From an uncultured Gammaproteobacteria bacterium (GTDB lineage: Bacteria > Patescibacteriota > Microgenomatia > Levybacterales > GWA1-39-11), in the NCBI GenBank assembly GCA_964651815.1, contig CAZYWG010000003.1:52531-116530 (forward strand): a stretch of 64,000 nucleotides of DNA, given 5' to 3'. Made by a program: the position numbers and the translations under genes. Shown piece by piece: positions 12,101-37,918 of this stretch. How positions within the stretch are numbered: position 1 is the stretch's first letter; each line of letters starts with the position of its first letter. The notes beneath the pieces were generated by a model, which searched no databases, was not told where the DNA came from, and worked only from the letters and a program-made list of their open reading frames with translations.

Positions 12101-13028
12101 TTATAATGTTAAAACCCACTTTTTAAATTCTTTTTCCTCTTTATAGTCCGCGTCCGGTTTGAAAGATTCGTCTGAAAAGCCGCCTATGGCGCGGGATGCG
12201 AGGACGGTTTGGAGTTTGTTTTTGTCATAACCACGTTCGACAAGTTGGTCGAATATCTGAATTGCCAGCTCGGGTTTTTCTAAAACACTGTGTACGCGCT
12301 GTATGAAATAAGCAATATCGTAATACTCTACCCCATGAGAATGGGCGTGTTCTCCGTCAATAAGTGCAATTGCTTTTTCATCAGTAATAATCATATGCCA
12401 CGGAGTGAAATCTCCGTGTCGCGGCTTTTTCCGAAAGATTATTAGCACCTTCCTTTACAAGATCGAAAAGCTGTTCTAGCTTATACCGCTTGATTATTTC
12501 ACCTGGTATAGTATCGAGCCAGGATTTTGTTTTCTCAACAAACCATTCTTGGTGATTGGGGGACTGAATAGCATCGTTTATAGGAATCTTTAAAGGAAGG
12601 TCTTGAATGAATTCGGAGAAATCTATAATTTGGTTTATATACTGGCCAATGAAATTGTATTTTTGATCAATAGCTGCTATTTGTGGACCGGTGTATTCTT
12701 CAATCAGTATGTAATATAAACCTTTATAGTATCCGCCTTCGTAAAATTTTGGGACAAGATAGTATTCGTTTATTGACAATTTGTTAAATTCCTCGCACCA
12801 AATTCTTTCCGTTTCAAGACGGGCGCTTATTCCAGGAGTCGTCGCCATTTTTATGAAGTATTCGCGATATTCATCCCTGACTTTTCCTAAGACGTGTCTG
12901 CAGCCTTGCCAAAGCCTAATCACTTTGTAATTCTTCTGGAGAAATGACTTCACGCTTTTAAGATCAAGTGTCTCTCCCACTCTATAATCCAGCAGTTTCC
13001 CATTCTTTTGAACTTTGAAAGCATCCAT
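12101..13028 (-). pseudogene. protein-kinase-like phosphotransferase (APH/choline-kinase/CotS fold) split by a frameshift
   Basis: Two overlapping minus-strand ORFs, 12381..13028 and 12101..12448. The catalytic Brenner-like motif RHGDFTPWHMII and IALIDGEHA...YYDIAYF sit at the very start of the second ORF. The frame change maps to a T5/A5 homopolymer at about 12426-12430, and removing one A gives a continuous ...NNLSEKPRHGDF... reading. Confidence 0.5.
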
Positions 13029-21519: not shown

Positions 21520-22716
21520 CTATTGGATTTGCGAAATTAATGCATAAATTGGAGTTATAACCGAGAGTATTAAGAATCCAACGGAAATACCTAGTGAAAT
21601 TATCAAAATAGGCTCAATCGCAGTTGTAAGAGTTTTGATTCTTACATCCAAATCACGTTCAAAATATTCTGATATTTTATTTAAACTGTCATCAATTTTT
21701 CCTGTTGATTCACCAACTTTAGCCATTTGGATAAGCATCGAGGGAAAAATATTTGTACTTTGCATAGCATCAGACAAAGAAATACCTTTTTCAACTAGCT
21801 CGCTTGTTGAAAGAATTGCAGTTTTGTACCAATAATTGTCCGCTACATTTGCAACAATATGAAGACTTTCAATTATAGATGCACCTGAAGCAACAAGTAG
21901 AGACAGAGTCCTTGATATTTCATTTAACGTGGAAAGCCTAATTATTTGTCCAAAAACTGGTAGTCTTAACTTGACTTTGTCAATTATTTTGATACCTTCT
22001 TCTGTTTTTTTAAATCTTTTATACAAAAAAACACCTACAACACCAAAAAGTATTCCGGGGATATAAAATGTTGTGAAGAATTTAGAAAAACCAAGTACTA
22101 TTCTAGTTGTGAGTGGAAGATTTAAATTTAAGTTTTGATACAAGCTCCCAAGTTGCGGAATAACAAAAACATTCATGATAATAATTACTACAATAACTCC
22201 CGTTATAACTATGGCCGGGTAAACAAGTGCCGACCTAACTTTCTTTTGGAGGTCATCTGATTTTTCAAGGTTATCAGCGAGTCTGCCTAGTACTTTATCA
22301 AGTAATCCGCCCTTTTCTGCGGCCTTAATAAGCGCTATATAAAGATTTGAAAAATAGGGCCTATGTATAGACAAGGCGTCAGAAAATGAAGTCCCTTCTG
22401 AAATTTGCACTATTAAATCATTTATTATTTCCTGCATTCCTTGACTTTGAACTTGGTCTTTGAGTATTTTCAATGACTCCATAAGCGTGAGGCCCGTTAG
22501 CGCCATAGATGAAAGCTGACGCGTGAAAATAATGATATCCGAGTTTTTAACTTTTTTAAAAAAGAGAAATCCCGAAGTATCATCTATTTTTCTTACGGAC
22601 AAAGGGGTGATGTTGGCAGTGCGTAAAAAATCTATAACCTCACGCTCGTTATTTGCTTCAATTTTTCCTTTTGCTTTGAGTGAATTTTTGTCAACTCCTG
22701 TGTAGATAAATTGCAT
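21520..22716 (-). CDS. pilC: type IV pilus inner-membrane platform protein PilC (GspF family)
   Basis: 398 aa; two T2SSF-type repeats with TM segments; adjacent to pilT and pilB. Confidence 0.85.
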   Translation of the reverse strand: MQFIYTGVDKNSLKAKGKIEANNEREVIDFLRTANITPLSVRKIDDTSGFLFFKKVKNSDIIIFTRQLSSMALTGLTLMESLKILKDQVQSQGMQEIINDLIVQISEGTSFSDALSIHRPYFSNLYIALIKAAEKGGLLDKVLGRLADNLEKSDDLQKKVRSALVYPAIVITGVIVVIIIMNVFVIPQLGSLYQNLNLNLPLTTRIVLGFSKFFTTFYIPGILFGVVGVFLYKRFKKTEEGIKIIDKVKLRLPVFGQIIRLSTLNEISRTLSLLVASGASIIESLHIVANVADNYWYKTAILSTSELVEKGISLSDAMQSTNIFPSMLIQMAKVGESTGKIDDSLNKISEYFERDLDVRIKTLTTAIEPILIISLGISVGFLILSVITPIYALISQIQ

Positions 22717-22719
22717 AAG

Positions 22720-23784
22720 TTAGCCGAGAAGTTGCATAAATGTATCCATCCTTAGAGCATAGGTGCGTGCCGTTTCGAGGGAAATTCTTCCTTCTCTAAC
22801 TAAAATTGCAAGAGAAGATTCAAGAGGAATCATGCCGATGTCTTGAGACGTTTCTATTATAGAATCAATAAGATGAGTTTTTGACTCACGAATGTTAGAC
22901 CTAACGGCGTTGTTTGCAATTAACACCTCGCATGCCGCTACCCGCCCGCCGTCAATTCTAGGTATTAGGCGCTGGGAAATAATCCCTCCAAGAGACGCGG
23001 CAAGCTGCGTCCTTATTTGATTTTGTTGTCTGTCAGGGAATGAATCAATTATTCTATCAATACTTTGCGCGGCAGAATTTGTGTGAAGTGTTGAAAAAAC
23101 CAAGTGACCTGTCTCGGCCACAGTAATTGCTGACGCAATACTTTCAGGATCTCTCATTTCACCAATTAACAAAACGTCAGGATCTTCACGCAAGGAACTT
23201 TTGAGCGATTCCCCCCAGGAAAGAGTATCTATGCCTACTTCTCTTTGAGAAATAATGCTTTTTCCCTTTGGGTAAACATATTCAATAGGATCTTCAACAG
23301 TTACAATGTTTCTTGCATCTGTTGTATTAATTTCATTAATTATTGAGGCAATGGTAGTTGATTTGCCGTGTCCTGTGGGTCCTGTGACTAGAATAAACCC
23401 TTGTCTCAACTTAGCAAATTCATGGCAAATTTGCGGAATATTGAGTTCTTCAATGGTTTTGACGCGCGCCGGCAATAAACGGAAAGCCCCGGCAATTGTT
23501 CCCCTCTGGTAATAAAGATTTATTCTGAAACGCCCTAATGCCCCATAATCTCCTCCACCGTAGCCGTAAGAAAAATCTATACATCTATTAACGGCAAGCA
23601 TTTCTTTTTGTGCAGGACTTATTATCGAAAAAACAAGCTCCTCAATGTCTTTTTCTGTCAAAGGTTGGTAATTAAGTGAAACGAGTTTGCCATCAACTCT
23701 TATTGTTGGTACAACACCAACAACAAGGTGCAAATCCGACGCGTTTGCCCCAATAGTTTTATCGAAAAGTTCACTTATAGTCAT
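22720..23784 (-). CDS. pilT: twitching-motility retraction ATPase PilT
   Basis: 354 aa; Walker A GPTGHGKSTT, and the PilT-specific C-terminal AVRSNIRESKTHLID (AIRNLIRE motif). Confidence 0.85.
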   Translation of the reverse strand: MTISELFDKTIGANASDLHLVVGVVPTIRVDGKLVSLNYQPLTEKDIEELVFSIISPAQKEMLAVNRCIDFSYGYGGGDYGALGRFRINLYYQRGTIAGAFRLLPARVKTIEELNIPQICHEFAKLRQGFILVTGPTGHGKSTTIASIINEINTTDARNIVTVEDPIEYVYPKGKSIISQREVGIDTLSWGESLKSSLREDPDVLLIGEMRDPESIASAITVAETGHLVFSTLHTNSAAQSIDRIIDSFPDRQQNQIRTQLAASLGGIISQRLIPRIDGGRVAACEVLIANNAVRSNIRESKTHLIDSIIETSQDIGMIPLESSLAILVREGRISLETARTYALRMDTFMQLLG

Positions 23785-23834: not shown

Positions 23835-25667
23835 TTACTCCTGCGCCACTCTCAAAATTTCATCCATAGTCGAAATTCCTTCCAGAACCTTAAGATATCC
23901 ATCCTGTTTCATTGTTACCATTCCCTCCGCTTTTGCTTGATTCTCTATCTCTGTCGCATCGCTTTTGTTTAAAATTAACCTTGCAACTTTTTCGCTCACC
24001 TGTAAGACTTCAAAAATCCCTACCCTTCCAATATAACCCGTATGCCCGCAAATATCACATCCCTGACCTTGGTAAAGCCTTATCTCCGATTCGGGTATAG
24101 TCAAAAGACTCCCCAAATTTTTTTTGAGTTCTTCAATCAAAGCGCGAGCAGGTAGATAGTCTTTTTTACAATTTTGGCAAACCTTTCTTGCAATTCGCTG
24201 CCCTACAATTGCGTTCATTGTGGATGCAATCAGGAAAGGTTCTGCGCCCATGTCAATCAAACGCGGGAGCGCGCCTGAAGCGTTTGAAGTATGGATTGTT
24301 GAAAATACTAAATGTCCGGTAAGTGAAGCCTGAATAGCAAGATCTGTCGTTTCTTTATCACGAATTTCACCAACAAGTATGATATTTGGATCTTGTCGTA
24401 AAAAAGAGCGCAATCCTGTTGCAAAAGTGAGACCTACATCAGGATTGATTTGGACTTGGTTTGCCCCCGAAATTTGATATTCCACAGGGTCTTCAAGTGT
24501 GACAATGTTGACTCGTGTTGTATTGAGTTTTGATAACACAGAGTACAAGCTGGTGGTTTTCCCAGAACCTGTTGGTCCACAAACAAGAATTATACCGTGC
24601 GGTCTTAAGATTGAGGCTTCAAGTGACCGCAGCCCTGTTCCTCGCAATCCAAGCTCGGCAAGCGTTGGGACTCCTCCTGATTTTTTGAGAAGTCGCATAA
24701 CAATTTTTTCACCAAATGAAATAGGCAATGTGCTCACGCGGAGATCTACCTCTTCATTCCCAAATTTAAAATTGAAACGTCCATCTTGGGGTATCCTATG
24801 TTCGTCAATTTTCATGTCGGAAAGAATTTTAATTCTCGAAAGTACTGCTTCTTTTACGGCAAGAGGTAACGCAAGCCTTTCATACAATATTCCGTCAATT
24901 CTGTATCTTACGCGAATTCTGTCTTCTTGAGGCTCCAGATGTACGTCTGACGCCTTACTTTTTATTGCATATTCAAGAATTGTTGAAACAATTTTTGCAA
25001 TTGGAGCCTCTTTAATTACGTCACTTATCGAGTTTTTATCAAATGTTTTTACTCCTGTTATTTCTTCCGTTTCTTTAAGCGCGGCTTTTACATCTCCAAC
25101 AAGTCCAAACGTATACTGATTCTGTATGGCAGTTTTGATTTCGCCCGGGATAGCCTGAAATGTTAAGATAATCTTGTTTGTTTTTTGCTTAAGAAAGTTA
25201 ACTGTTTCAAGGTCAAGTGGATCCCCCATTGCAATAGACAACGTATTTTTTTCTTTGTCATATGCAAATGGAATAATATTAAATCTGTCTGCAACTGCTT
25301 TATTTACATAACTCATTGATTCCGGGGAAAAAGGAAGATTTGCAACTGAAACAAACGGTATTCCAATTAATTTTGCCCGGGTTTCATAAAAAATTTCATC
25401 ACTTACAAATTTTGAATCAAGCAAGACTTTATCAACGGGTAATTCTTTTTGGACTGCCGCGAATTTAACCTTATCGTATTGTTCTTGATTAATTGCTCCA
25501 TCATGGAAAAGTATGCCGGCAATGTCTTTCCCCTGCGCCTGAGAGGAAGCTCCGGCAGTCTGAGCTTGCGAAGTTTGATTTGAAATTGGATTGTTTTGGG
25601 CAGGATCCATAATTTTTGCTACTCGTTTTTCGTCATTTGTTTTTTTGTGCCTAAACTCACAACACAA
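23835..25667 (-). CDS. pilB: type IV pilus assembly ATPase PilB (GspE family)
   Basis: 610 aa; Walker A GPTGSGKTT, tetracysteine Zn motif CQNCKK...CDICGHTG, and an N-terminal GspE_N-like domain. Confidence 0.85.
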   Translation of the reverse strand: MCCEFRHKKTNDEKRVAKIMDPAQNNPISNQTSQAQTAGASSQAQGKDIAGILFHDGAINQEQYDKVKFAAVQKELPVDKVLLDSKFVSDEIFYETRAKLIGIPFVSVANLPFSPESMSYVNKAVADRFNIIPFAYDKEKNTLSIAMGDPLDLETVNFLKQKTNKIILTFQAIPGEIKTAIQNQYTFGLVGDVKAALKETEEITGVKTFDKNSISDVIKEAPIAKIVSTILEYAIKSKASDVHLEPQEDRIRVRYRIDGILYERLALPLAVKEAVLSRIKILSDMKIDEHRIPQDGRFNFKFGNEEVDLRVSTLPISFGEKIVMRLLKKSGGVPTLAELGLRGTGLRSLEASILRPHGIILVCGPTGSGKTTSLYSVLSKLNTTRVNIVTLEDPVEYQISGANQVQINPDVGLTFATGLRSFLRQDPNIILVGEIRDKETTDLAIQASLTGHLVFSTIHTSNASGALPRLIDMGAEPFLIASTMNAIVGQRIARKVCQNCKKDYLPARALIEELKKNLGSLLTIPESEIRLYQGQGCDICGHTGYIGRVGIFEVLQVSEKVARLILNKSDATEIENQAKAEGMVTMKQDGYLKVLEGISTMDEILRVAQE

Positions 25668-26391: not shown

Positions 26392-26420
26392 TTGACAATG
26401 TATTATGTTTATGGTTATTA
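26392..26420 (+). promoter_or_regulatory. candidate sigma70-like promoter for first pilin (TTGACA -35; weak TTATTA -10)
   Basis: Canonical TTGACA at 26392-26397 with 17-bp spacing to TTATTA at 26415-26420, about 12 bp before the probable pilin ATG at 26432. Confidence 0.3.
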
Positions 26421-26431
26421 TTAATTACAAC

Positions 26432-26956
26432 ATGAAAACTGCTCAATTCGCTAAAGCAAATCTTCGCAAAGGATTCACTCTTATTGAACTTCTTGTAGTC
26501 ATTGCAATCTTAGCTGTTTTGGCAGTAATAGTTTTGACTGTAATAAACCCGGGTAACAGAATTGCATCTGGTAAAAATGCAAGAGTTAGGGCAGATCTTG
26601 CGTCAATTGGACGAGGTGCTACTCTATTTTACTCTGATACTAGCTCTCCTCAGAGTCCTGCTTGTACTCTCCCCGGTTCATATCCTGACGCATTTGGAGT
26701 TACCGCTGCAGGATGTACACAGATTGCATTTCAGGCAACCGTGAATGATCCTGATGGATCTGCATATGTTATAAATAAAACTCCTCCAACTTGTACCGCT
26801 GGTGGAACTACTGCTTGCACAGGATTTGCAATAGCAGGTCCGGCATACACTGACAACGTAATAAACGCAGGTTCACTTAAGGCATGGTGTTGGCAAGCTA
26901 AGACCGGAACAATAACTCAAGTAACAGATAAAACAACTACAAACTGCGCCCCATAA
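26432..26956 (+). CDS. type IV pilin (major pilin candidate A)
   Basis: Class III signal MKTAQFAKANLRKG|FTLIELLVVIAILAVLAV with Glu at +5. The ORF track starts at 26405, but the in-frame ATG at 26432 gives a 14-aa leader. C-terminus has 6 cysteines, 4 in the shared tail. Confidence 0.8.
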   Translation: MKTAQFAKANLRKGFTLIELLVVIAILAVLAVIVLTVINPGNRIASGKNARVRADLASIGRGATLFYSDTSSPQSPACTLPGSYPDAFGVTAAGCTQIAFQATVNDPDGSAYVINKTPPTCTAGGTTACTGFAIAGPAYTDNVINAGSLKAWCWQAKTGTITQVTDKTTTNCAP

Positions 26957-26980
26957 ATAATTGGAGTTGATAAAGAGTCA

Positions 26981-27004
26981 AGCCGGGTTTGCCCGGTTTT
27001 TTTA
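26981..27004 (+). terminator. rho-independent terminator after pilin A
   Basis: CCGGGtttgCCCGG hairpin followed by TTTTTTTATTT, 25 bp after the pilin stop. Confidence 0.55.
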
Positions 27005-27269: not shown

Positions 27270-27833
27270 TTGGTTATGGAATTTATGGGATTTGCACAAA
27301 AGAAAAAGTATTTATCATTTCTTAGTTCTCATTTCTTAGTTGCCAAAGGATTCACCCTTATTGAACTTCTTGTAGTCATTGCAATATTAGCAGTATTGGC
27401 AGTAATAGTTTTGACAGTAATAAATCCGGGTAAAAGAATTGCATCAGGTAAAAATGCAAGAGTTAGGGCAGATCTCGCGTCAATTGGCCGTGCGGCTACA
27501 CTCTTTTACACCGATACTGCTTCGCCTCAAAACCCCACTTGTACTACCCCAAGTTCATATCCAGAAGCATTTGGAGTTACTGCTGGAGGATGCGGTACAA
27601 AGGTTGCATTTCAGGCAACTGTAAATGACCCTGATGGATCTGCATATACTATAAATGTTCCTACTGGGTGTTCTGCTAGTGGAGCAACAGCCTGCACAGG
27701 ATTTGCAATTGCAGGTCCGGCATACACTGACAACGTAATAAACGCAGGTTCACTTAAAGCATGGTGTTGGCAAGCAAAGACCGGAACAGTAACTCAGGTA
27801 ACAGATAAAACAACCACAAACTGCGCCCCATAA
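27270..27833 (+). CDS. type IV pilin (paralog B of pilin A)
   Basis: KG|FTLIELLVVIAILAVLAV prepilin motif. N-terminal about 60 aa and C-terminal about 50 aa are near-identical to pilin A (...TGFAIAGPAYTDNVINAGSLKAWCWQAKTGT[I/V]TQVTDKTTTNCAP) with a divergent middle. Confidence 0.8.
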   Translation: MVMEFMGFAQKKKYLSFLSSHFLVAKGFTLIELLVVIAILAVLAVIVLTVINPGKRIASGKNARVRADLASIGRAATLFYTDTASPQNPTCTTPSSYPEAFGVTAGGCGTKVAFQATVNDPDGSAYTINVPTGCSASGATACTGFAIAGPAYTDNVINAGSLKAWCWQAKTGTVTQVTDKTTTNCAP

Positions 27834-27920: not shown

Positions 27921-28496
27921 ATGAAATCGCCTAAAAAACTCTCATCTACTATTTCTCATTTCTCACCTCAAAAAAGATTTGTCCTGAGCTTGCCTGCGGG
28001 ATTCACCCTTATTGAACTTCTTGTAGTCATTGCAATCTTAGCAGTATTGGCAGGAATGGTTTTATTAATAATAAATCCTGGCAAAAGAATTGCTTCATCA
28101 AAAGATGCAAATGTTAAATCTGACATCACAACCCTAGCTGTTGCTTTGCAAGGTTATTACACGGCTCAAGCTTCCACGCAATATACCACCACTTTAGATG
28201 GTTTGGTAACGTCAGGTGAATTAAAATCGGTGCCGAAACAGCAATCAGGAAATATTACTTGTCCTGCTGCTGCTGCTGGTTCTACGCTGAATGTTTCTGG
28301 GACGGCGGGTACGACTGGTTATTATTATTGCTATTATACGGTTACCGTGTCGGGCGCTGTGACTTCTGTAGCTGTCATGGGTAGTCTTTTCAACGTTGCT
28401 TCAAACACATGGCATTGTTGGGATTCAAATACCGGTGCATATAAATCTTCAACCACCGCTGCCCCAACAGTTGCCTCAAGCCAGCTAAGCTGTTAA
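27921..28496 (+). CDS. type IV pilin-like protein (S/T-rich)
   Basis: 27-aa leader then AG|FTLIELLVVIAILAVLAGMV; Ser/Thr/Gly-rich C-terminal domain with a Cys pair. Confidence 0.75.
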   Translation: MKSPKKLSSTISHFSPQKRFVLSLPAGFTLIELLVVIAILAVLAGMVLLIINPGKRIASSKDANVKSDITTLAVALQGYYTAQASTQYTTTLDGLVTSGELKSVPKQQSGNITCPAAAAGSTLNVSGTAGTTGYYYCYYTVTVSGAVTSVAVMGSLFNVASNTWHCWDSNTGAYKSSTTAAPTVASSQLSC

Positions 28497-28554: not shown

Positions 28555-30633
28555 TTGATTTCCCCTAATCCTACATATAGAATGGTAGATATTATAAAAG
28601 CACTTAAAAGCAACCGATGGTACTTAGAGTATTTGGCGATATTAATATTCTTAATTTTGGTGGGAATATTATACATTTTTAACTTAACACGAGATGTATG
28701 GGGGGATAGCGGAGACTTAGTTACTGCCGCTTACGTTTTTGGAGTTGCACACCCCTCCGGATACCCCCTGTTTACATTTCTTGGATACTTTTTTTCTCAT
28801 CTTCCACTACCTCAGCCTCCAGTATTTAGAGTTGGTTTGATTTCTGTATTTTCTTCCCTCTTAACTCTTTTTATTTTATTTAAACATTCGTTTAGGGTAA
28901 CTAAAAATATTGCAATGTCGCTTCTTACAGTATCAATACTCGCCTTTTCTTATTTATTTTGGTTTTATACAGAAGTACCCGATGTATTTGCTTTAAATAG
29001 TCTGTTTGCAGTGTTACTTATATTTCTAGCGACCCTTTTTTATCAGGAAAAAAAGATGAAATATCTATACCTTTTAGTATTCTTCTCTGCCCTATCGCTC
29101 ACACACCAGGAAACAATTATTCTGATATTCCCTTCCATAATATTTCTTGTTTTAAAAAGAACTGGCATCATAATCAAAAACAAACGTAACATAATCATTA
29201 TGTTTTTGTCGGCTTTATTGGGTTTTACTCCATTTCTTTATATACCAATTGCAGCAAGTCACAACCCAGTTATCAACTGGGATCACGCCTCAAACATCTC
29301 TAACTTTTTGTATTTAATTTTACGTAAAGATTACGGATCGGCCCCCGGAATTACAAGTAATTTTCCACTTTTTTATAAACTTTTTTTTATAAAGCACTAT
29401 TTTCAGTCAACTATAGAATCATTGACCCTACCAACTATTCTTATTTGCGTGGCTGGTGCTTTAAAGTTATTCAAGAAAGACAAGGGCTTATCCTTAAGCC
29501 TTGTGTTTGCGTTTATTTTGTCAGGACCTCTGTTTGCTCTTTATTTTTTTGTGTTTTATATACCTTATACCAATATACTTTATTGGCTGGGAGCGATTGA
29601 AAGATTTTATATATTGCCAACTTTAGTCCTTATGTTTTTCTTCCCTTACGGACTGATTTATGTAAATGAATTGCTGGATTCTAAGTTTTCCGAAATGTTT
29701 GGTAAATTTATATTTCTTGTATTATTTTTTATCCCATTGTTCTTATTAATAACCAATTATAAAACAGCCACGCTTTCATCATCACAAATTGGAAATAATT
29801 ATGCTAAAGATGTTCTTACTCCAGTTCCTAACAAAACTGCACTTTTAGTGGCAGGAGATAATCCTACCTTCAATTTGTGGTACTTGCATTTTGTTTTAGG
29901 TAAAAGAGCTGACGTAGATTTTATTCATGAGGGTGGCGTTGGAGGAGGGAGCATTATTTGGTTTAATGCTATGCAAGAATTTTTTAGACGTAAAGGTATT
30001 CAATCAGTTAATCTAAGTGACATATATAAATATAAAATAGACATATTTAAGCAGCTCGCAAGCAACAGACCCGTTTTAAGTACTGGAATTATAGATCTAG
30101 GAAATTCTGATTTGATTTGGGTTCCACTTGGGGTTACTTACATTCTTACAAAAAAATCTGATATTCCTTCTGAGAATGACTTCACTGCAGAAGTAGAAAA
30201 GGCTTGGAAAAAGATAAATTCTCCTACAAGAGATAATCTCCTGCCCTCAGAGCAAAATTTTATGATTGCTAAAATCGTAGAATATTATTCATCCGTCCTG
30301 TTTGACACCGGCAATTTTTACAAACTAGTTTTTAAGGATTATAAGATGGCCCAAAAGTATTATAAAAAAGCCGTTGAAATTGACCCAGAAAATCCGGATG
30401 CCTATAGTGAATTAGGTCTTGCATCATTTGAGTTAACAAAGAATTGTCGAGAAGCTGAAGAAGCCGAAAAAACAGCTATAGATCTTAGCTATAGTATCTT
30501 AAGTTCACCAAAACAATATTATGCAAATTTATATCTTATTTATAAAGCATGTAAGGACCAAAAAGGAATGAACCCGCTAATAAATGAATATAATTCAGCC
30601 TTCCATGAAGATATTAAAAAGAATTTTAAATAA
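28555..30633 (+). CDS. GT-C fold membrane glycosyltransferase-like protein (DUF2723/PMT-like) with C-terminal TPR domain
   Basis: 692 aa. About 11 TM helices; acidic first-loop motif DVWGDSGD similar to the DE/DD motif of GT-C (PMT/ArnT/TMEM260-like) enzymes. Soluble C-terminal TPR-like repeats (AQKYYKKAVEIDPENPDAYSELGLA). Lies between pilin genes and pilD. Confidence 0.55.
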   Translation: MISPNPTYRMVDIIKALKSNRWYLEYLAILIFLILVGILYIFNLTRDVWGDSGDLVTAAYVFGVAHPSGYPLFTFLGYFFSHLPLPQPPVFRVGLISVFSSLLTLFILFKHSFRVTKNIAMSLLTVSILAFSYLFWFYTEVPDVFALNSLFAVLLIFLATLFYQEKKMKYLYLLVFFSALSLTHQETIILIFPSIIFLVLKRTGIIIKNKRNIIIMFLSALLGFTPFLYIPIAASHNPVINWDHASNISNFLYLILRKDYGSAPGITSNFPLFYKLFFIKHYFQSTIESLTLPTILICVAGALKLFKKDKGLSLSLVFAFILSGPLFALYFFVFYIPYTNILYWLGAIERFYILPTLVLMFFFPYGLIYVNELLDSKFSEMFGKFIFLVLFFIPLFLLITNYKTATLSSSQIGNNYAKDVLTPVPNKTALLVAGDNPTFNLWYLHFVLGKRADVDFIHEGGVGGGSIIWFNAMQEFFRRKGIQSVNLSDIYKYKIDIFKQLASNRPVLSTGIIDLGNSDLIWVPLGVTYILTKKSDIPSENDFTAEVEKAWKKINSPTRDNLLPSEQNFMIAKIVEYYSSVLFDTGNFYKLVFKDYKMAQKYYKKAVEIDPENPDAYSELGLASFELTKNCREAEEAEKTAIDLSYSILSSPKQYYANLYLIYKACKDQKGMNPLINEYNSAFHEDIKKNFK

Positions 30634-30721: not shown

Positions 30722-31516
30722 GTGCAAATATATCTAGGTTTTATTTTCTTTATAATTGGCACCGCAGTCGGGAGTTTTTTAGGGGTTGTTATAGACCGCC
30801 TACCTAGGAAAAAATCAATATGGGTTGGACGGTCTGTTTGTGACTCTTGCCACAAAAAGCTTACGCCAATCGAACTTGTACCCGTCGTTTCATATATAGT
30901 CCAGGGTGGTAAGTGCAGAAAGTGCCATGCTAAACTTCCGCTTAAGCTTCTCATTTGCGAGGTTTTAACAGGCCTGGCTTTTGTTTTAGTGTATCTTGTT
31001 TTTCCCCTTTCAGCCTTCCATTTTCAACCCACTCTTTTTACGTTCTTCACTATTCTTTATCTACTTCTCGTGATGTGTCTTAATATTGTTATCTTTTATA
31101 TAGATCTGGATTTTGGGATTATTCCAGACGAATTAATAGGAGTTTTTGTTATTACGGCCCTGCTTTACAACTTTATTTTTTTCAGAGTTGGTTTTATTGT
31201 TCACATTTTCTCGGGCTTAGGAGCTTTTTTACTATTCTTATTCCTATATCTTATAACGCGAGGCCGTGGAATGGGTTTTGGGGACGTAAAATATGCTCTT
31301 GCAATTGGTCTGTTTTTGGGATTTCCAGCCATAATAGTAAGTCTTTACTTTGCTTTCTTGACAGGCGCGGCAATTTCACTAATACTTATAGTATATGGGA
31401 ATAAACATCTTAAAAGCTCCATTCCGTTTGGTCCGTTCTTGGCTGCTGGGACTATCTTTGCCTGTTTTTGGGGAGAAAGCGCAATTAAATTTATTTTCAA
31501 AGTTTTCAATTGGTAA
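30722..31516 (+). CDS. pilD: prepilin peptidase PilD (A24 family)
   Basis: 264 aa; N-terminal Zn-binding CDSCHKKL...CRKCHAKL tetracysteine motif, polytopic, conserved GFGDVKYALAIG region around the catalytic Asp. Confidence 0.85.
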   Translation: MQIYLGFIFFIIGTAVGSFLGVVIDRLPRKKSIWVGRSVCDSCHKKLTPIELVPVVSYIVQGGKCRKCHAKLPLKLLICEVLTGLAFVLVYLVFPLSAFHFQPTLFTFFTILYLLLVMCLNIVIFYIDLDFGIIPDELIGVFVITALLYNFIFFRVGFIVHIFSGLGAFLLFLFLYLITRGRGMGFGDVKYALAIGLFLGFPAIIVSLYFAFLTGAAISLILIVYGNKHLKSSIPFGPFLAAGTIFACFWGESAIKFIFKVFNW

Positions 31517-32033
31517 AAATAACTTTTTTGCCCCTCGCCTCTTATCTTCCCAGGGTTTCACCCTCATTGAACTTCTTGTAGTCATAGCAATTCTCGGAAT
31601 TCTCTCTTTCGTTTTAACAACTACAATCAATCCACTTGATAAAATTAACGCTGCAAATGACGCAAGAGCCATTTCCACAATAACTCAACTTGGCAAGGCA
31701 ATGGATTCATGCGAAACATTTCATGATGATGCAAAACCATCTCCTGCCGGGAATTCGTTCTTTCCTGACTCTATATGTGACTTAAACACTGTTGAGGAAG
31801 TTAAATTTACTACAATTGCCGCAATAAATAATTATACATTTTACTATTTTGTAACGCCCGCAACCTGCAAAAACAATAAGTCAGTCAAATGTACGGGCTA
31901 CCTATTTGGTATTGGTACGCTAGCGTCAAAAAAATTCATAGCTAAGCCCTACTTTGTTTATACGAACGGAAAAGGTTGTTACATTGGTAATATTCCATCT
32001 TTGTCAAGTATTGGAGCCACATCTTGCCCATAG
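31395..32033 (+). CDS. type IV pilin-like protein (start uncertain; 5' end overlaps pilD)
   Basis: Contains QG|FTLIELLVVIAILGILS. The only ATG in frame (31395) lies 120 bp inside pilD and gives a 51-aa leader; the true start is probably a non-ATG codon nearer 31520-31545. Confidence 0.6.
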   Translation: MGINILKAPFRLVRSWLLGLSLPVFGEKAQLNLFSKFSIGKNNFFAPRLLSSQGFTLIELLVVIAILGILSFVLTTTINPLDKINAANDARAISTITQLGKAMDSCETFHDDAKPSPAGNSFFPDSICDLNTVEEVKFTTIAAINNYTFYYFVTPATCKNNKSVKCTGYLFGIGTLASKKFIAKPYFVYTNGKGCYIGNIPSLSSIGATSCP

Positions 32034-32089
32034 AAAAAGTCTTTATCAACAACAGAATCCATTTTATTGGTTTTTAAAATCACATTTTC

Positions 32090-32629
32090 TTGACAGCACC
32101 CCATAATTATTTCATACTAAGTGTAATGCATAAAAAAGGATTTACATTAATCGAATTGGTTGTTGTAATTACAATACTCAGTATTCTTGCAGTTGTTCTT
32201 GTTACGCTTCTCAATCCAGTTACCCAATTTCAAAAGACTAACGATACACAGAGGAAAAGTGATTTGTATCAAGTCCAGAAGGCTTTGGAAACATATTATG
32301 CCGACCATGGTAGTTATCCAATAAGCACGGGTGCCTACACTATAAGTGACAGTAATGGAGCGCACGCCTGGGGTACTAACTGGCCTTCTTATATGGATGT
32401 ATTGCCGCAGGATCCCAAAACAGCGTCTGGTAAAACATACATTTATTATTCTCTCGATGGGCAGAGCTATAAACTTTATACAAATCTTGAGCGCGGCGGC
32501 AATGACCCTCAGGCATGTAATGTCAGTGGTACGGATTGTCCCCACGTCCCGGGAAATCCAGGGTCAAACTTGTGTGGTGGTGGCAGCTCATGTAATTATG
32601 GGCTTTCAAGTCCAAACGTATCGCCGTAA
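32090..32629 (+). CDS. GspG/PulG-like pseudopilin
   Basis: KKG|FTLIELVVVITILSILAVVLVTLLNPVTQFQKTNDTQRKSDLYQVQKALETYYADHGSYP matches the T2SS-G/minor pilin N-domain consensus. Confidence 0.75.
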   Translation: MTAPHNYFILSVMHKKGFTLIELVVVITILSILAVVLVTLLNPVTQFQKTNDTQRKSDLYQVQKALETYYADHGSYPISTGAYTISDSNGAHAWGTNWPSYMDVLPQDPKTASGKTYIYYSLDGQSYKLYTNLERGGNDPQACNVSGTDCPHVPGNPGSNLCGGGSSCNYGLSSPNVSP

Positions 32630-32668
32630 GAGATTGATTAAATATTAGATATTATATATTATAAAAAT

Positions 32669-33157
32669 ATGCCCAAAGCTATCCTAAAAAAGTCCACGGT
32701 CCGTGGTCCACAGTCTACTGCTTCCGGCTTTACGCTTATCGAATTACTAGTTGTTATTAGTATAATTTCTATTCTAGCGTCTCTGCTTTTGGCAAATTTT
32801 GTTGGAATAAGGCAGCGAGCGCGCGACGGACAAAGAAAATCAGACCTTCGCCAAATCCAAGGCGCACTCGAGTTATACCGCGCTGACAATGGTGCCTATC
32901 CTACTCCCGCAAGCGGAATTACACTAGTTACTTGTAATTCAGCTTTTAGTAACGGTACTACGGTGTATATGTCCAAAGTTCCGTGTGATCCTTTATCATC
33001 AACGGGTTACAACTCCGCCAATTACGGATATTCATCAGCTGGCACTACCTATAATTTGTGTGCTTGTTTGGAAAACGCAAACGATCCTGATATTAATACT
33101 ACAAACGGCACTCTTGGCTGCACCAGCACAAAATTTATCTGTTACACCAACCCATAA
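32669..33157 (+). CDS. GspG/PulG-like pseudopilin
   Basis: SG|FTLIELLVVISIISILASLLLANFVGIRQRARDGQRKSDLRQIQGALELYRADNGAYP. Confidence 0.75.
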   Translation: MPKAILKKSTVRGPQSTASGFTLIELLVVISIISILASLLLANFVGIRQRARDGQRKSDLRQIQGALELYRADNGAYPTPASGITLVTCNSAFSNGTTVYMSKVPCDPLSSTGYNSANYGYSSAGTTYNLCACLENANDPDINTTNGTLGCTSTKFICYTNP

Positions 33158-33168
33158 AACTCTAAGAA

Positions 33169-33738
33169 ATGAAAAATGAAAGAAAGATTAATTCCCAGGT
33201 ATTATCAGCCTCAACAGAAAGCAACAAAAAGGGTTTTACCCTAATCGAGCTTTTAGTCACTTTTTCTATACTTTCAGTTTTAGCTTCAATTGGGTTTCTA
33301 TCTTTTGTAACTTATAGCAGAAAACAAATCATTCAACAGTCTGCCTCAGATTTAAAACAAGCAATTGACATTGCAAGGAATAATTCACTCTCAGTGGTAA
33401 AACCAGCGGGCTGCCCTGCAAACAGCGAGCTGTCTTCATATATAGTCAGCATTTGCGTAGGGGGTAATCCTACATGTAATGTTGGCGGAACTATTTATAC
33501 AGGCAACAATTATTATGAAACACGTGCTAATTGTCAACCAACGCAAGTCGTATCACTTCAAAAAAAGCTTCCACAAAATGCTTCATTTGGAGGCAGCAGT
33601 CCATGTCAAAATATTACGTTTGCAAGTGTCCGTCCGCAGACAACCGGGGTTCCATGTGCTGTTAATATAACGCTTAACGGTCAAACTTTAACAGTTTCAG
33701 TAGATTCACAAGGATACGTATCATTTCCTACAAACTAG
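33169..33738 (+). CDS. minor pilin-like protein
   Basis: KKG|FTLIELLVTFSILSVLASIGFL prepilin motif, 23-aa leader. Confidence 0.65.
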   Translation: MKNERKINSQVLSASTESNKKGFTLIELLVTFSILSVLASIGFLSFVTYSRKQIIQQSASDLKQAIDIARNNSLSVVKPAGCPANSELSSYIVSICVGGNPTCNVGGTIYTGNNYYETRANCQPTQVVSLQKKLPQNASFGGSSPCQNITFASVRPQTTGVPCAVNITLNGQTLTVSVDSQGYVSFPTN

Positions 33739-33751
33739 TATTAAAAATTTT

Positions 33752-34249
33752 TTGTTTTTGGATATGTTTATGAAAAAGAATTGGTCATTTATAGTTGGTT
33801 CTGAAGGGCAAAGCATAATAGAAGCGCTTGTTGCGCTTTCTTCCATTTTAATTTCACTCGCAGCAATTTCTGTTGCAATAATAACAAGTGTCAACAACAC
33901 ACAGTTCATAAAAGACCAATCTATCGCTTCAAAATACGCACAACAAGGCATGGAATACATAAAATATATTAGGAATAATGACCCCGCGACTTTCTTTTCT
34001 TACAATGGCATAAAATGTATGAACCAGGACGATTCCTTTTTAAATACATCATGTTCCAGTGCAAACATAGCTGGAGCATATAAGAGAGAGGCTGAATTTA
34101 GTCAAAATGATTCTCAATGTGTCGCAGCAACCAAGGTAACCGTCACAGTTTACTGGACAAGTACTAAGTGTCAAAGTGGATCTTTTTGTCATTCCTCATC
34201 ACTAATATCCTGTTTTTCAACAATACCCGTTTCTCTTAAATCCTTATGA
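33752..34249 (+). CDS. minor pilin-like protein (PilV-like)
   Basis: GQS|IIEALVALSSILISLAAI: degenerate class III signal with Glu+5 retained; Cys-rich C-terminus. Confidence 0.5.
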   Translation: MFLDMFMKKNWSFIVGSEGQSIIEALVALSSILISLAAISVAIITSVNNTQFIKDQSIASKYAQQGMEYIKYIRNNDPATFFSYNGIKCMNQDDSFLNTSCSSANIAGAYKREAEFSQNDSQCVAATKVTVTVYWTSTKCQSGSFCHSSSLISCFSTIPVSLKSL

Positions 34250-34803
34250 CAAAACACAAAATAAATCAGAAAATTTTTGGATATACGGTTATAGAACTTC
34301 TGGCAGTTGTTTCAATTTTGGTTATAATAGCCGGTGTAGTATCAGGTATTTTGTATTCAACTCTACGTGGAAGCGGCAAGGTGAAAGTTACTGGCGAAAT
34401 AATTCAAAATGGCCAATATGCTATATCTGTTGTTAGGTCTATTATTGACGACTCACGTAATGTTACGCTTATTGATGGCGTTGCGCCTGATTGTACGCAG
34501 CCTATTCCTACTCCTGGTGCATCTTCAATCACATTTAAACGATTAGATAATACTACGACTACAATTTCGTGTGTAGGACCACCTTCCTATGCTATTGCTT
34601 CAAACAGTGCGTCGCTTGTTAACACCCAAAGTGTTAAGATACAAAACTGCATATTTTCGTGTGCTCAGCTAGTAAGCGATCCTTACTCCGTGCCAATAAT
34701 TAACGTTACATTTACAGTTTCAGACCGTGGTACGGGATTATTTGAAAGTCGTGCTTCCTCAGTATTTACAACCTCCTCTTCTCTTAGGAGTTATTCCCCG
34801 TAA
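34246..34803 (+). CDS. minor pilin-like protein (PilW-like)
   Basis: FG|YTVIELLAVVSILVIIAGVV; start overlaps the upstream stop (ATGA). Confidence 0.5.
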   Translation: MTKHKINQKIFGYTVIELLAVVSILVIIAGVVSGILYSTLRGSGKVKVTGEIIQNGQYAISVVRSIIDDSRNVTLIDGVAPDCTQPIPTPGASSITFKRLDNTTTTISCVGPPSYAIASNSASLVNTQSVKIQNCIFSCAQLVSDPYSVPIINVTFTVSDRGTGLFESRASSVFTTSSSLRSYSP

Positions 34804-34874
34804 AAATTCCGGGCACAACTGTCCGTTTCGAGCGAGGGTTGACACGCTCATTCATTTTTATTTATGATAGATAT

Positions 34875-35699
34875 ATGGTAAAAAACCCAAATTCAGGGCA
34901 AATGCTTCTTGTTGTGGTTTTGACAATGATTGTTGCGCTCACTGTGGGTTTATCAGTCGCCTCAAGAACGGTTACCAACCTCAAACTTTCACGCCAAAAT
35001 GATGAGTCAGAACGCGCTTTTCAAGCAGCAGAGGCTGGGGTTCAGCAAGTTTTACAATCGGGAAGCGCACTTAACAACCCAAATTTTCAAAATAACGCTA
35101 CATATAATATCGGATCCGTTTCTCATTTAAACGGCGCGAGTATTGGGCTTAATGGTGGAGAGATTGTTGACCAGGATTCTGGGCTTGATGTCTGGCTTTC
35201 AAATTATCCCGATTTTAGTAGCACTATGGGAAACGGTAGTGCTGCTAGCATTACGTTGTATTGGGGTACAGATAATCAGACTACATGCAATACAGGTGGT
35301 TTATCAAACGTTAAATCCGCTCTTGAAATTGCCATACTTTCAGGAAACAAGCTGAATCCCACATTTACTAAAAATTTATATGAGGCAAACACTTGTGGAA
35401 GAATTGCCGGCGCTCTTGCTCCAACCGGTGGGAACGTTACTCCAAGCGGCACAAGCGTTCACTACCAAAATTACGTGACTTTTACAGTTACAAACGGTTT
35501 GATTATGAAAGTAATTCCCATTTATAATTCTTCAAAGATTTTTGCGATATCAAATACAGGGGGCGTAACTTTTCCTCCACAAGGGACCCTGGTGCAGGCA
35601 ACTGGGACTGCCGGAGATACAGTCCGCAAAATAACATATTTTGCTTCTTACCCTCAGATACCTGTTGAAATGTTTCCATATGCACTTATTACACAATGA
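34875..35699 (+). CDS. PilX-like minor pilin (PilX_N domain)
   Basis: MVKNPNSGQMLLVVVLTMIVALTVGLSVASRTVTNLKLSRQNDESERAFQAAEAGV matches the PilX N-terminal pattern (..ALVVALL..LG..S.....AGN....AF.AAEAG). The ORF track starts at 34839; the internal ATG is preferred. Confidence 0.55.
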   Translation: MVKNPNSGQMLLVVVLTMIVALTVGLSVASRTVTNLKLSRQNDESERAFQAAEAGVQQVLQSGSALNNPNFQNNATYNIGSVSHLNGASIGLNGGEIVDQDSGLDVWLSNYPDFSSTMGNGSAASITLYWGTDNQTTCNTGGLSNVKSALEIAILSGNKLNPTFTKNLYEANTCGRIAGALAPTGGNVTPSGTSVHYQNYVTFTVTNGLIMKVIPIYNSSKIFAISNTGGVTFPPQGTLVQATGTAGDTVRKITYFASYPQIPVEMFPYALITQ

Positions 35700-36727
35700 A
35701 AACAAAAACAATTGGCCTTGATATAGGAAGCACCTCTATCAGGGTTGCACACTTAAGGCATGAAGGAAATTCCTTTACCCTCGACTCTATTGCATCTATG
35801 CCGCAAAATACAAACGGATTGATATCCGATTCATTACTTGACCAGCAAGGGCTTGCAGATTCGATAAAAAAACTTATTTCTTCAGCAAATATTCACACCA
35901 AGGAAGTTGTGCTTTCAATTCCTGATAGCATGGTTTATACCAAAATAATACAAATGCCACAGCTTTCAGACCAAGAATTATCTGCAGCTTTAAAATTTGA
36001 AATGGAACAATACATACCTCTCCCAGTTGATCAGGTAAAGACAGATTGGGAAGTGCTTAGTAGGAATGAAACAAGTGGGAAAAAGACAATGAATGTCATG
36101 ATTGTTGCGGCCCCTCTCTCACTTCTTTCAAAATATGAAAAAATTATGGACATGGCGGGCTTGCTACCTGATGCAATTGAGACTGAGATTGTATCTGCCC
36201 ACCGTTCATTATTACCGCTAATTAACAATCCCGAGGCAAATATGATTGTGCATATTGGAGCCATAACTACAAGCATTGCAATAGTTAAAGAAGGTAAAAT
36301 AAAAATGATTTTTTCGCTAGGGCTTGGTGGGGCAGCTATGACTCGCTCAATATCAGTTGATCTTGGTATAGATATATCGCAAGCTGAAAATTACAAAAAA
36401 GCTTATGGACTTTCACAATCGGCATTTGAAGGGAAGATCGCAAAAGTCCTTGACCCTGTTTTGACATCTATAGTAGCAGACGTTAAAAAAGCAATGCTAT
36501 CTTACCATGAAAAAAATAACAACGAAAATATTAAACAATTGGTTTTGTCGGGCGGCTCCTCTCTCCTCCCAGGACTTGATGTTTATCTAACAAACGCATT
36601 ATCCACTCAAGTAGTTTTGGGTCGTGCTTGGTCTGCTTATAACATTTCAAATATACCTGATGAGTTACAGTCCCAAGCACCCGCATACAATGTAGCGATT
36701 GGTTTGGCTCTACGTAATTTAGTATGA
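35696..36727 (+). CDS. pilM: type IV pilus assembly protein PilM (actin-like ATPase fold)
   Basis: 343 aa; N-terminal IGLDIGSTSIRVAHL phosphate-1 motif and ...VLSGGSSLLPGL adenosine motif; start overlaps the pilX stop. Confidence 0.8.
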   Translation: MKTKTIGLDIGSTSIRVAHLRHEGNSFTLDSIASMPQNTNGLISDSLLDQQGLADSIKKLISSANIHTKEVVLSIPDSMVYTKIIQMPQLSDQELSAALKFEMEQYIPLPVDQVKTDWEVLSRNETSGKKTMNVMIVAAPLSLLSKYEKIMDMAGLLPDAIETEIVSAHRSLLPLINNPEANMIVHIGAITTSIAIVKEGKIKMIFSLGLGGAAMTRSISVDLGIDISQAENYKKAYGLSQSAFEGKIAKVLDPVLTSIVADVKKAMLSYHEKNNNENIKQLVLSGGSSLLPGLDVYLTNALSTQVVLGRAWSAYNISNIPDELQSQAPAYNVAIGLALRNLV

Positions 36728-37263
36728 AAGAAGATATAAACCTAGTCCCTCAAAAAAAAGAAGAACGAAAAATGTTAAACAACTATTTTTATGCTTCTTT
36801 GGGATTTTTTTCAGTGATGTTTTTGTTAGGTGCACTGCTTATCGCTTATTCATTAATAATTAGGGCTGGACTTGGGGGACTTACAAATGAGGAAGCAAAT
36901 GTCCGTTCACAGCTCACTGCACTATCTGGGAGAATAGGTAAAATTGCTTTGGTAAATGAACGTACGGACTCTATAAAAAATATTATTTCAAATCGGGATA
37001 AATTGACTATTTTGACTTCAAATCTTCTTGCCGCAATCCCTAATACTTTCACAATATCTTCACTAGTTGGGACAGATAAAGCAATACAACTTGCAATATC
37101 ATCAAATAGTTTAGCCGATTTTGACAATTTCTTTGAGCAAATCGTTCCTAAACTTGCAAAAAATAAGCTTTCAAGTATTTCCTCGGTAGAAATTAGTTCG
37201 TTTAGCCAGGATGGGGATGGGTACTCACTATCTGTGAGTTTTTTATTAAGTCAGCCTAAATAA
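36724..37263 (+). CDS. pilN: type IV pilus assembly protein PilN
   Basis: 179 aa, bitopic (cytoplasmic N-terminus, one TM, periplasmic coiled-coil/ferredoxin-like domain); 4-bp overlap with pilM (ATGA). Confidence 0.6.
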   Translation: MKEDINLVPQKKEERKMLNNYFYASLGFFSVMFLLGALLIAYSLIIRAGLGGLTNEEANVRSQLTALSGRIGKIALVNERTDSIKNIISNRDKLTILTSNLLAAIPNTFTISSLVGTDKAIQLAISSNSLADFDNFFEQIVPKLAKNKLSSISSVEISSFSQDGDGYSLSVSFLLSQPK

Positions 37264-37267
37264 TTAT

Positions 37268-37918
37268 ATGAAGTATAAAATTCCGGAAATTATTATTAAA
37301 CATAAAAAAATATTAACTCCACTGCTTTTTATAGTATTGGGTATATTTGTGTTGTTGTTTATAATAATACCTCAATTTTCAACTATTTCTGATTTAAATA
37401 ATCAGGTTGCTGCAGAAAATGATAAAGTAAATACACTTAAAAATTCTCTGCAAGTTGTTTCATCCCAAGATGACCAAGACTTAAACGCAAAAGTGGGAAT
37501 TGCAACGGATGCATTGCCTACAGCAAAAGATGTATCAAGAATTTTTTCGGCGCTATCCCAAGCTTCTGATGCTTCCCAAACAGTACTTGGAGAATTTTCT
37601 TTGAACGTTGGAGCAATATACGGTCGTGCTCAGCAACTGGAAGGAAAAATACAAGGGACCCCGTCAATTACCGTAAATGTACGTGTTGAAGGTAATGGTG
37701 CTCGGGAGCTTTCTGATTTTGCAAAAGACTTGCAAAAAGCACTTCCTCTTTCGGAAATTAGACAAATGGGAATTTCTGACAATTCAGCTTCTTATCAAAT
37801 CAACTTTTTTTATAAGCCTGTAGATTTATCGGTTATATCAAAACAAGACAAGGTTGTTCTTCCAAATCAGAATGCCGTGAATTTGCTTAATGAGCTTAAA
37901 ACTTGGGAAAGCCAATAA
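37268..37918 (+). CDS. pilO: type IV pilus assembly protein PilO
   Basis: 216 aa bitopic protein with coiled-coil (NQVAAENDKVNTLKNSLQ) immediately after pilN. Confidence 0.55.
   Translation: MKYKIPEIIIKHKKILTPLLFIVLGIFVLLFIIIPQFSTISDLNNQVAAENDKVNTLKNSLQVVSSQDDQDLNAKVGIATDALPTAKDVSRIFSALSQASDASQTVLGEFSLNVGAIYGRAQQLEGKIQGTPSITVNVRVEGNGARELSDFAKDLQKALPLSEIRQMGISDNSASYQINFFYKPVDLSVISKQDKVVLPNQNAVNLLNELKTWESQ

Follow-up and report, generated by a model that had tools for sequence, protein, structure and literature searches.

The 64,000-nt stretch analysed here (the window; contig CAZYWG010000003.1 of assembly GCA_964651815.1) holds a complete type IV pilus cluster, and between a pilin gene and pilD in this cluster lies a gene for a TMEM260-like (PF11028, formerly DUF2723) glycosyltransferase of the GT-C type (positions 28555 to 30633, plus strand). 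Its product is probably an active accessory enzyme that O-glycosylates a pilin outside the membrane, with a polyprenyl-phosphate carrier as the source of the sugar. This proposal builds on the family, fold and topology of the protein, on the conservation of its catalytic residues and on a synteny that is conserved among relatives. An earlier reading of the DNA that used only its letters and a list of open reading frames (ORFs), here called the sequence-only reading, had already singled out this gene as a candidate pilin glycosylation enzyme.

The longest ORF starts with TTG at 28555 and encodes 692 aa between the third pilin gene and pilD, as the sequence-only reading had it. For the identical public protein P0001 an ATG start at 28582 is called, giving 683 aa, and residue numbers refer to this shorter form unless the 692-aa ORF is named. 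Neither TTG 28555 nor ATG 28582 is preceded by an obvious Shine-Dalgarno sequence, and the difference of nine residues does not affect the interpretation of the gene. The protein matched PF11028 over residues 51-201 with 84.6 bits (cut-off 24.2 bits; E=9.4e-24), and the same family is precomputed for P0001 and for all 120 listed homologues. An ORF of 2 kb with this Pfam score and 184 database homologues is far beyond chance. Among solved structures the sole sequence match other than TPR proteins was human TMEM260 (9rql): phmmer aligned residues 35-458 of the query with residues 35-464 of the chain (E=1.8e-37), and a profile of 27 sequences matched over positions 16-502 against residues 30-523 of the chain (E=4.6e-79). 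TPR_11 scored 28.8 bits (cut-off 26.8 bits) at residues 598-625, and PMT_2 stayed with 22.4 bits under its cut-off of 26.1 bits. The Pfam scan of the protein gave no match to PMT (PF02366), to the MIR domain or to YfhO, and none to the O-antigen ligase-like Wzy_C family at E<=0.1, in agreement with the earlier statement that the enzyme is distinct from PglL/PilO. The NCBIfam scan returned sub-threshold TPR noise only, and a tblastn search against plasmids found no match. The G+C content of the gene (28582-30633) is 0.329, compared to 0.415-0.422 for the three pilin genes upstream and 0.38 for the window. This is probably due to the Phe/Ile/Leu/Tyr/Lys-rich composition of a membrane protein, which explains the low value more simply than recent transfer; acquisition from elsewhere is the less likely cause.

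An AlphaFold2 model of the protein, computed on the alignment of its relatives, reached a predicted local distance difference test score (pLDDT) of 89.5 and a predicted template modelling score (pTM) of 0.90. Its best structural matches were all GT-C enzymes, including ArnT, AftA/B, Emb and GT-C oligosaccharyltransferases among the close neighbours, followed by TPR proteins for the C-terminal part. A hydropathy scan detected 11 hydrophobic membrane segments, matching the roughly 11 transmembrane (TM) helices counted previously. According to the positive-inside rule the N-terminus is cytoplasmic and the C-terminus outside, placing the first loop, the 223-277 loop and the entire C-terminal 290 residues on the outer side. 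The 11 TM segments form the GT-C module (28582 to 29769, plus strand; aa 1-396), which is predicted to bind the polyprenyl-phosphate-sugar donor. It includes the first extracytoplasmic loop with the sequence GDSGD...GVAHPSGYP (28690 to 28821, plus strand; aa 37-80), carrying D42 and H57. An extracytoplasmic alpha/beta, Rossmann-like domain follows (29788 to 30216, plus strand; aa 403-545); it was delimited from the model and the alignments, contains D426 and shows strands at 420-423, 446-449, 498-500, 511-516 and 519-524. The C-terminal TPR domain (30259 to 30627, plus strand; aa 560-682), presumed to form acceptor-binding 'fingers', appears in the model as helical repeats over residues 560-682, so that the TPR tail noted earlier is backed by both the above-cut-off TPR_11 match and the structure prediction. 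As modelled, this domain order corresponds to the 'wrist, palm, fingers' architecture described for TMEM260.

Cryo-electron microscopy and mutagenesis of human TMEM260 identified six essential residues: two in the first luminal loop (D52 and H67), one that binds the phosphate (R264), two that bind mannose (Y267 and R355), and one in the Rossmann-like domain that is proposed to act as catalytic base (D441); what the enzyme recognises is a short peptide in extended form and not the protein as a whole (bioRxiv 10.64898/2026.03.17.711096). In the HMMER alignment these residues correspond to D42, H57, R248, Y251, R341 and D426 of the window protein. Among the 33 proteins of the pilus-linked clade defined below, D42, H57, R248 and D426 are conserved in all 33, and Y251 and R341 in 32 each. 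In the predicted topology the catalytic and donor-binding residues, together with the C-terminal domains, lie outside the membrane. The sequence-only reading had compared the loop sequence DVWGDSGD, which occupies residues 47-54 of the 692-aa ORF within the first loop that faces outward, to the DE/DD motif of other GT-C enzymes. It thereby pointed to the right catalytic region, since the first Asp of the motif aligns with D52 of TMEM260, and misjudged the motif itself: it is GDxGD instead of an adjacent acidic pair, and the proposed catalytic base is a second Asp, D426, in the Rossmann-like domain and not in the loop. At the second acidic position of the loop the pilus-linked clade has Asp, whereas TMEM260 and most other bacterial homologues carry Glu. 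Retention of the entire split active site, as judged from these alignments, speaks for a catalytic protein and against one with a structural role only.

To place the gene in its family, relatives were collected by a profile search with one genome per species, which found 553, and the best 80 were taken with 10-kb flanks. The genes pilB, pilT, pilC, pilD, pilM and pilN were marked in these loci by tblastn with the proteins of the window, and pilins by their class-III signal motif. In a neighbour-joining tree of these best 80 of the 553 relatives, the pilus-linked proteins formed a single clade, and the window protein belongs to this clade of 32 loci, all of them Patescibacteria-like. At least one pilus marker was present in 31 of the 32. 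A pilin gene lies directly upstream on the same strand in 20 of the 27 clade loci with enough upstream sequence, and pilD follows within 5.5 kb downstream in 20 of the 25 that could be evaluated. In contrast, homologues from other phyla (Verrucomicrobiota, Elusimicrobiota, Gemmatimonadota, Myxococcota and others) showed any pilus marker in 3 of 42 cases and pilD in none of 27. The usual order in the clade is pilB, pilT, pilC, pilin, GT-C gene, zero to three extra genes, pilD, four to six pilins and pilM. In two Woesebacteria (L018 and L024) the GT-C gene is inverted and still sits between the pilC-proximal pilin and pilD, and in L005 it adjoins the pilins of a second pilB/pilC system. The clade is deep, with identities between the GT-C proteins down to about 27%, and the slot between pilin and pilD is kept across it. 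Both a GT-C fold and pilin linkage in relatives, the absence of which the sequence-only reading had named as grounds for abandoning its proposal, were thus found, and the linkage to pilus genes in 31 of 32 loci supports the suggested role in pilin glycosylation.

The pilin upstream of the GT-C gene belongs in most of the clade to one conserved family (...IDPFEQLKKA...GELK...CF.P.SKS...CYWC). Beyond the clade, one of the 3 loci with a pilus marker among the 42 from other phyla, a GC-rich contig that is not from Patescibacteria (L079, 1014-7970), carries pilM/N-like, secretin-like, pilin (5582-5959) and DUF2723 genes in a row, the last one running from 6027 to the contig end. This apparently represents an independent pairing of a pilin gene with a following TMEM260-like gene, in a bacterium with an outer-membrane secretin.

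In the reverse direction, 80 metagenome loci were taken with a PilD profile. A GT-C gene was present in 1 of the 38 loci whose sequence extended 4 kb or more upstream of pilD, and in 1 of the 28 that also showed pilC upstream; these PilD relatives are distant (27-44% identity), so that 1/38 is not the frequency of the GT-C gene within its own order. In the remaining loci the gap of 0.5-2.5 kb between pilC and pilD holds pilins only. The GT-C gene is therefore a lineage-specific insertion into a widely conserved slot and, because only 1 of 38 related pilus clusters carries it, a pilin accessory gene and not part of the machinery.

From the TMEM260 mechanism and the gene order we infer the acceptor, sugar, donor lipid and biological role as follows, the pilin as acceptor from gene order only. 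As a member of the TMEM260-like GT-C glycosyltransferases, the enzyme would work by inversion. Its donor would come from a cytoplasmic GT2, with a gene elsewhere in the genome, that loads a single hexose onto undecaprenyl or another polyprenyl phosphate, and the lipid-linked sugar would then be flipped across the membrane. There the 11-helix module would bind the lipid-phosphate-sugar, with R248 on the phosphate and D42, H57, Y251 and R341 on the sugar. The TPR 'fingers' may hold an extended stretch of a pilin just after translocation of its globular domain, while the Rossmann-like 'palm' would set a Ser or Thr beside D426. Deprotonation by D426, attack on the anomeric carbon and transfer with inversion would yield a pilin with an O-linked sugar already in place at its entry into the fibre. 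The glycan is probably lengthened or diversified in many relatives by a second membrane glycosyltransferase (YfhO-like or PMT_2-like) of the slot. A likely benefit would be an altered pilus surface, for example in phage evasion or host recognition, by analogy to TfpO and TfpW of Pseudomonas.

A class A penicillin-binding protein (PBP) with transglycosylase and transpeptidase domains is encoded in the window, which implies that the organism uses undecaprenyl-phosphate carriers. The 64-kb window contains no GT2 donor synthase, no GtrA and no other glycan gene with the sole exception of an NAD-dependent epimerase/dehydratase (48424-49554), from which it follows that the donor is made elsewhere in the genome.

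A wider extrapolation is tentative and in our view doubtful in its full extent. It would make bacterial TMEM260-like proteins genuine protein O-glycosyltransferases, of which a dedicated clade in Microgenomates-type Patescibacteria O-mannosylates or hexosylates an extended segment of the major pilin at its exit from the membrane by means of a split active site of the human type. A second periplasmic GT-C enzyme, YfhO-like or PMT_2-like, would extend the glycan from lipid-monophosphate sugars only, and the pilus glycan would constitute a lineage-variable surface code of episymbionts for host recognition or phage evasion. The animal TMEM260 pathway would then descend from the glycosylation of bacterial appendages.

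The GT-C gene lies 85 bp 3' of pilin gene 3 (27921-28496), and this position directly upstream of the GT-C gene makes pilin 3 the most probable acceptor, perhaps together with its paralogues. The sequence-only reading had drawn attention to Ser/Thr/Pro-rich strings in the adjacent pilins. The strings SPQSPACT, TTTLDGLVTSG and STLNVSGTAGTTGYYY do occur in the translations, but Ser and Thr make up 18-25% of the mature part of the window pilins, which is ordinary for type IV pilins and by itself no evidence for glycosylation. A strand of the pattern G-G-x-N-x-V-T-x-C-F in some pilin lineages resembles the TMEM260 acceptor. Its Thr is not claimed as a glycosylation site, as Gottesmanbacteria-type pilins carry Ala or Ser at this position.

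Several observations weigh against pilin glycosylation by transfer of a single sugar. Gene order shows functional coupling to the pilus locus and not the identity of the acceptor; within the pilin family that precedes the GT-C gene in most of the clade, pilin 3 of the window is divergent, and a conserved Ser/Thr sequon was sought in the partner pilins and none was found. The YfhO family, to which the commonest neighbour of the enzyme is similar, is known for the glycosylation of teichoic acids and not of proteins. Some relatives have GT2, GT4 and aminotransferase genes next to the GT-C gene, which would be easier to reconcile with an oligosaccharide transferred en bloc than with a single hexose. 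The lack of a donor-synthesis gene in the window also counts against the proposal. A study of Saccharibacteria pili gave O-glycosylation of pilins as a software prediction only, called for testing of this prediction and named no enzyme.

Four other explanations of the gene have to be weighed. It might encode a protein O-glycosyltransferase of general use that acts on many secreted or surface proteins, like PglL in Neisseria and PMT in actinobacteria, with pilins as one substrate at most and the pilus locus serving co-expression only. Recognition of a short extended peptide by TMEM260 would allow several substrates, the upstream pilin differs from the main family in L022, L030 and the window, and homologues outside the Candidate Phyla Radiation (CPR) have no pilus linkage. 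We nevertheless regard this explanation as unlikely, given that the slot between pilin and pilD is kept across a clade of about 27% identity even where the gene is inverted, and that in the known cases, TfpO and TfpW, accessory genes directly after the major pilin gene are pilin-specific. Alternatively, the enzyme might modify a non-protein acceptor at the membrane's outer face, for instance a wall or teichoic-acid-like polymer or a lipid, as ArnT, YfhO and Emb/Aft do, and this modification might be needed locally where the pilus crosses the wall. ArnT, AftA/B and Emb are indeed close structural neighbours, and a YfhO-like protein is the commonest neighbouring gene product (17 loci). On the other hand, the sole sequence relative with a solved structure is a protein O-mannosyltransferase, and the protein-acceptor apparatus of TMEM260 is kept, comprising the Rossmann-like domain with its Asp in 33 of 33 proteins and the TPR domain; a non-protein acceptor is thus rather improbable.

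Pilin glycosylation could also proceed by an oligosaccharyltransferase or polymerase activity that builds a multi-sugar glycan from lipid-linked precursors, similar to TfpW, which has been proposed both to polymerise and to transfer. GT2, GT4 and DegT genes beside the GT-C gene in L001, L018 and L030 would agree with such an activity, as would the GT-C oligosaccharyltransferases among the structural neighbours. The residues by which TMEM260 handles a single phosphate and a single mannose are all conserved, though, the TfpW motifs DDX and YX6PFX7P are absent and there are no neighbouring glycan genes in the window, and we give this possibility little weight. Finally, the protein might have no catalytic function and serve the structure or assembly of the pilus machine, for instance as a TPR scaffold like PilF/PilW. 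It has a TPR domain and its gene lies inside the pil operon; the NCBIfam similarity to TPR proteins of the PilW/Tgl type is very weak (E 0.05-0.15, far under the cut-offs). The structural-component hypothesis was rejected as highly improbable, on the grounds that the catalytic and donor-binding residues are invariant across the clade and that 37 of the 38 related pilus clusters of the same gene order lack the GT-C gene, which is hence not core machinery. An accessory pilin O-glycosyltransferase remains the explanation that we favour.

Of the known enzymes, human TMEM260 (PDB 9RQL/9RQM/9RQN) is a sequence homologue with the same 11-TM GT-C fold and the same non-cytoplasmic Rossmann-like and TPR parts, and all six of its essential residues are conserved in the window protein. 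The two would differ in donor, dolichyl-phosphate-mannose for TMEM260 and probably a bacterial polyprenyl phosphate sugar here, and in acceptor, the IPT domain of the plexin, MET and RON receptors versus presumably a type IV pilin; the TPR region of the window protein cannot be aligned in sequence to TMEM260 beyond about residue 500. A functional precedent is TfpW of P. aeruginosa, the arabinosyltransferase for group IV pilins. TfpW has 646 aa, a cytoplasmic N-terminus, 11 TM helices, an acidic motif in periplasmic loop 1 and, in the periplasm, a sizeable C-terminal TPR domain. Its gene follows pilA directly and has a strain-specific distribution, and it is needed for O-glycosylation (arabinosylation) of pilin Ser/Thr and for phage defence. 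ArnT is its best structural template, and the sugar is D-arabinofuranose, supplied via DprE1/E2-type genes. Compared by the published description of TfpW, the window protein resembles it on every anatomical point (11 TM helices, TPR domain, gene after a pilin gene, accessory distribution). They differ in that the TfpW motifs DDX in loop 1, where the window protein has GDSGD, and YX6PFX7P in loop 4 are missing; neither a DD or DE dipeptide nor either proline motif occurs in the window protein. Furthermore, DprE1/E2-type genes were not seen here, and the host of TfpW is a two-membrane proteobacterium, whereas the host of the window is an ultrasmall member of the Patescibacteria.

PglL and TfpO (PilO) likewise O-glycosylate pilins in the periplasm from a lipid-linked donor, and the TfpO gene also lies directly after pilA, but they belong to the unrelated Wzy_C fold and family and transfer preassembled oligosaccharides from undecaprenyl diphosphate. 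The PMT/POMT enzymes (GT39, including actinobacterial Pmt) combine a DE motif with MIR domains instead of Rossmann-like and TPR domains, and their similarity to the window protein is limited to the fold. The CsbB/GtcA/YfhO systems of Firmicutes follow the same logic as the proposed pathway, with a GT2 that makes C55-P-sugar, a flippase and transfer outside by a GT-C enzyme; the acceptors of YfhO are, as is generally known, teichoic acids, unlike the proposed pilin.

A pilin-adjacent GT-C enzyme with a periplasmic TPR domain is thus already known as a concept from TfpW, a precedent that the sequence-only reading had missed when it called the arrangement undescribed. Its claim of novelty holds for Patescibacteria: in the literature searched on pilin glycosylation or glycosyltransferases of Patescibacteria/CPR, a GT-C-pilin linkage is not described, and for DUF2723 the searched literature yielded only the work that identified human TMEM260, which mentions 'distant homologs in bacteria' in passing. 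If confirmed, the window protein would represent a third structurally distinct class of pilin-associated glycosyltransferase beside TfpO/PglL and TfpW. The clade-wide placement between pilin and pilD provides the first concrete functional context proposed for the bacterial TMEM260-like branch. Type IV pili are central to the attachment of Patescibacteria to host cells and to their life on them, and a confirmed activity would moreover offer a bacterial model for the split-active-site mechanism of a human disease gene.

In relatives, the slot also houses other putative glycosylation genes. One of them codes for a YfhO-like protein of about 720-760 aa; it is usually convergent with the GT-C gene, lies between this gene and pilD, occurs in the 17 loci L009, L016, L017, L019-L023, L026, L029-L032, L034, L035, L038 and L057 (for example L016:11916-14171, minus strand), and has no counterpart in the window. 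The match of that protein to YfhO is weak (25.9 bits, under the Pfam cut-off). Proteins of this group carry the conserved N-terminal motif 'PDFGRSDAWHFS' and look like a second, uncharacterised glycosyltransferase family of the pilus locus. In four Levybacteria-like loci (L004:12010-13161, L010, L012 and L013) a PMT_2-like membrane protein of 383 aa replaces it between the GT-C gene and pilD. GT2 enzymes are encoded beside the GT-C gene in L041, L030, L018 and L001; the one in L030 has 236 aa, a Dpm1-like size. L001 additionally has a GT4 and L018 a GT2-GT4 fusion protein, DegT-type sugar aminotransferases occur in L001 and L030, and methyltransferases in L021, L030 and L041. The cytoplasmic glycan-building genes at L001:5170-10164, L018:7028-9996 and L030:14146-17333 are hints of amino-sugar-containing or multi-sugar glycans in those lineages.

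In the window, the pilus cluster is arranged in two divergent groups. On the minus strand lie pilC (21520-22716), pilT (22720-23784) and pilB (23835-25667), identified by their translations and by strong tblastn conservation beside the GT-C gene in relatives; the operon with the pilin and GT-C genes is divergent to them on the plus strand. It starts with pilin 1 (26405-26956) and pilin 2 (27270-27833), both with a Pfam N_methyl match, which share 79% amino acid identity and 87% nucleotide identity over 497 bp, indicating by sequence comparison a tandem duplication. Pilin 3 (N_methyl, 1.8e-7) precedes the GT-C gene. Starting 88 bp downstream of the latter, pilD (30722-31516; A24_N_bact 1.5e-28, Peptidase_A24 6e-14) encodes the prepilin peptidase/N-methyltransferase. 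Seven minor-pilin-like genes follow from 31458 to 35699, recognised by class-III signal motifs, N_methyl/T2SSG matches and the gene calls of L081: 31458-32033, 32126-32629, 32669-33157, 33169-33738, 33770-34249, 34246-34803 and 34875-35699. The N_methyl or GFTLIEL class-III signal itself was found in three ORFs upstream and five downstream of the GT-C gene. The plus-strand series continues with pilM (35696-36727; PilM_2 Pfam match and tblastn conservation in relatives), a pilN-like gene (36724-37263; tblastn conservation in relatives) and an ORF of 216 aa (37268-37918). For the first pilin after pilD the longest ORF (31395-32033) shares about 120 bp with the end of pilD, and the public gene call, which starts at 31458, still begins within pilD.

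Pilin 1 is followed by a terminator-like hairpin at 26980-26999 with an 8-bp stem, five G-C pairs and a T-run, the sole convincing one of the region; a scan for promoters and terminators gave no more sites than in shuffled sequence. This hairpin suggests that pilin 1 may be the major subunit, expressed at a high level, and that read-through may serve the remainder of the operon. It is plausible that pilin 3, the GT-C gene and pilD are co-transcribed.

The window has a G+C content of about 0.38. Outside the pilus cluster it encodes housekeeping functions including gyrA/B, recG, aminoacyl-tRNA synthetases, the class A PBP and elongation factor P. The closest homologues of the GT-C protein come from Levybacteria, Gottesmanbacteria, Woesebacteria and other Patescibacteria. 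Public titles of L001, L002, L004, L005, L007, L009, L010, L012, L013, L015 and other loci read 'uncultured Gammaproteobacteria bacterium'. The gene content and closest relatives of these contigs are clearly patescibacterial, and the titles probably reflect a labelling artefact in the assembly project. Five ORFs of 215-538 aa in the window had no Pfam match at E<=1e-4 (61678-63294, 59639-60589, 7736-8533, 12381-13028 and 2107-2763); the one of 538 aa adjoins a radical-SAM gene (60599-61681). A trehalase-family glycoside hydrolase is encoded on the minus strand at 9567-10967 (Pfam Trehalase, 3.4e-76), next to a tyrosine recombinase gene at 11078-12031 (Phage_integrase, 1.6e-40).

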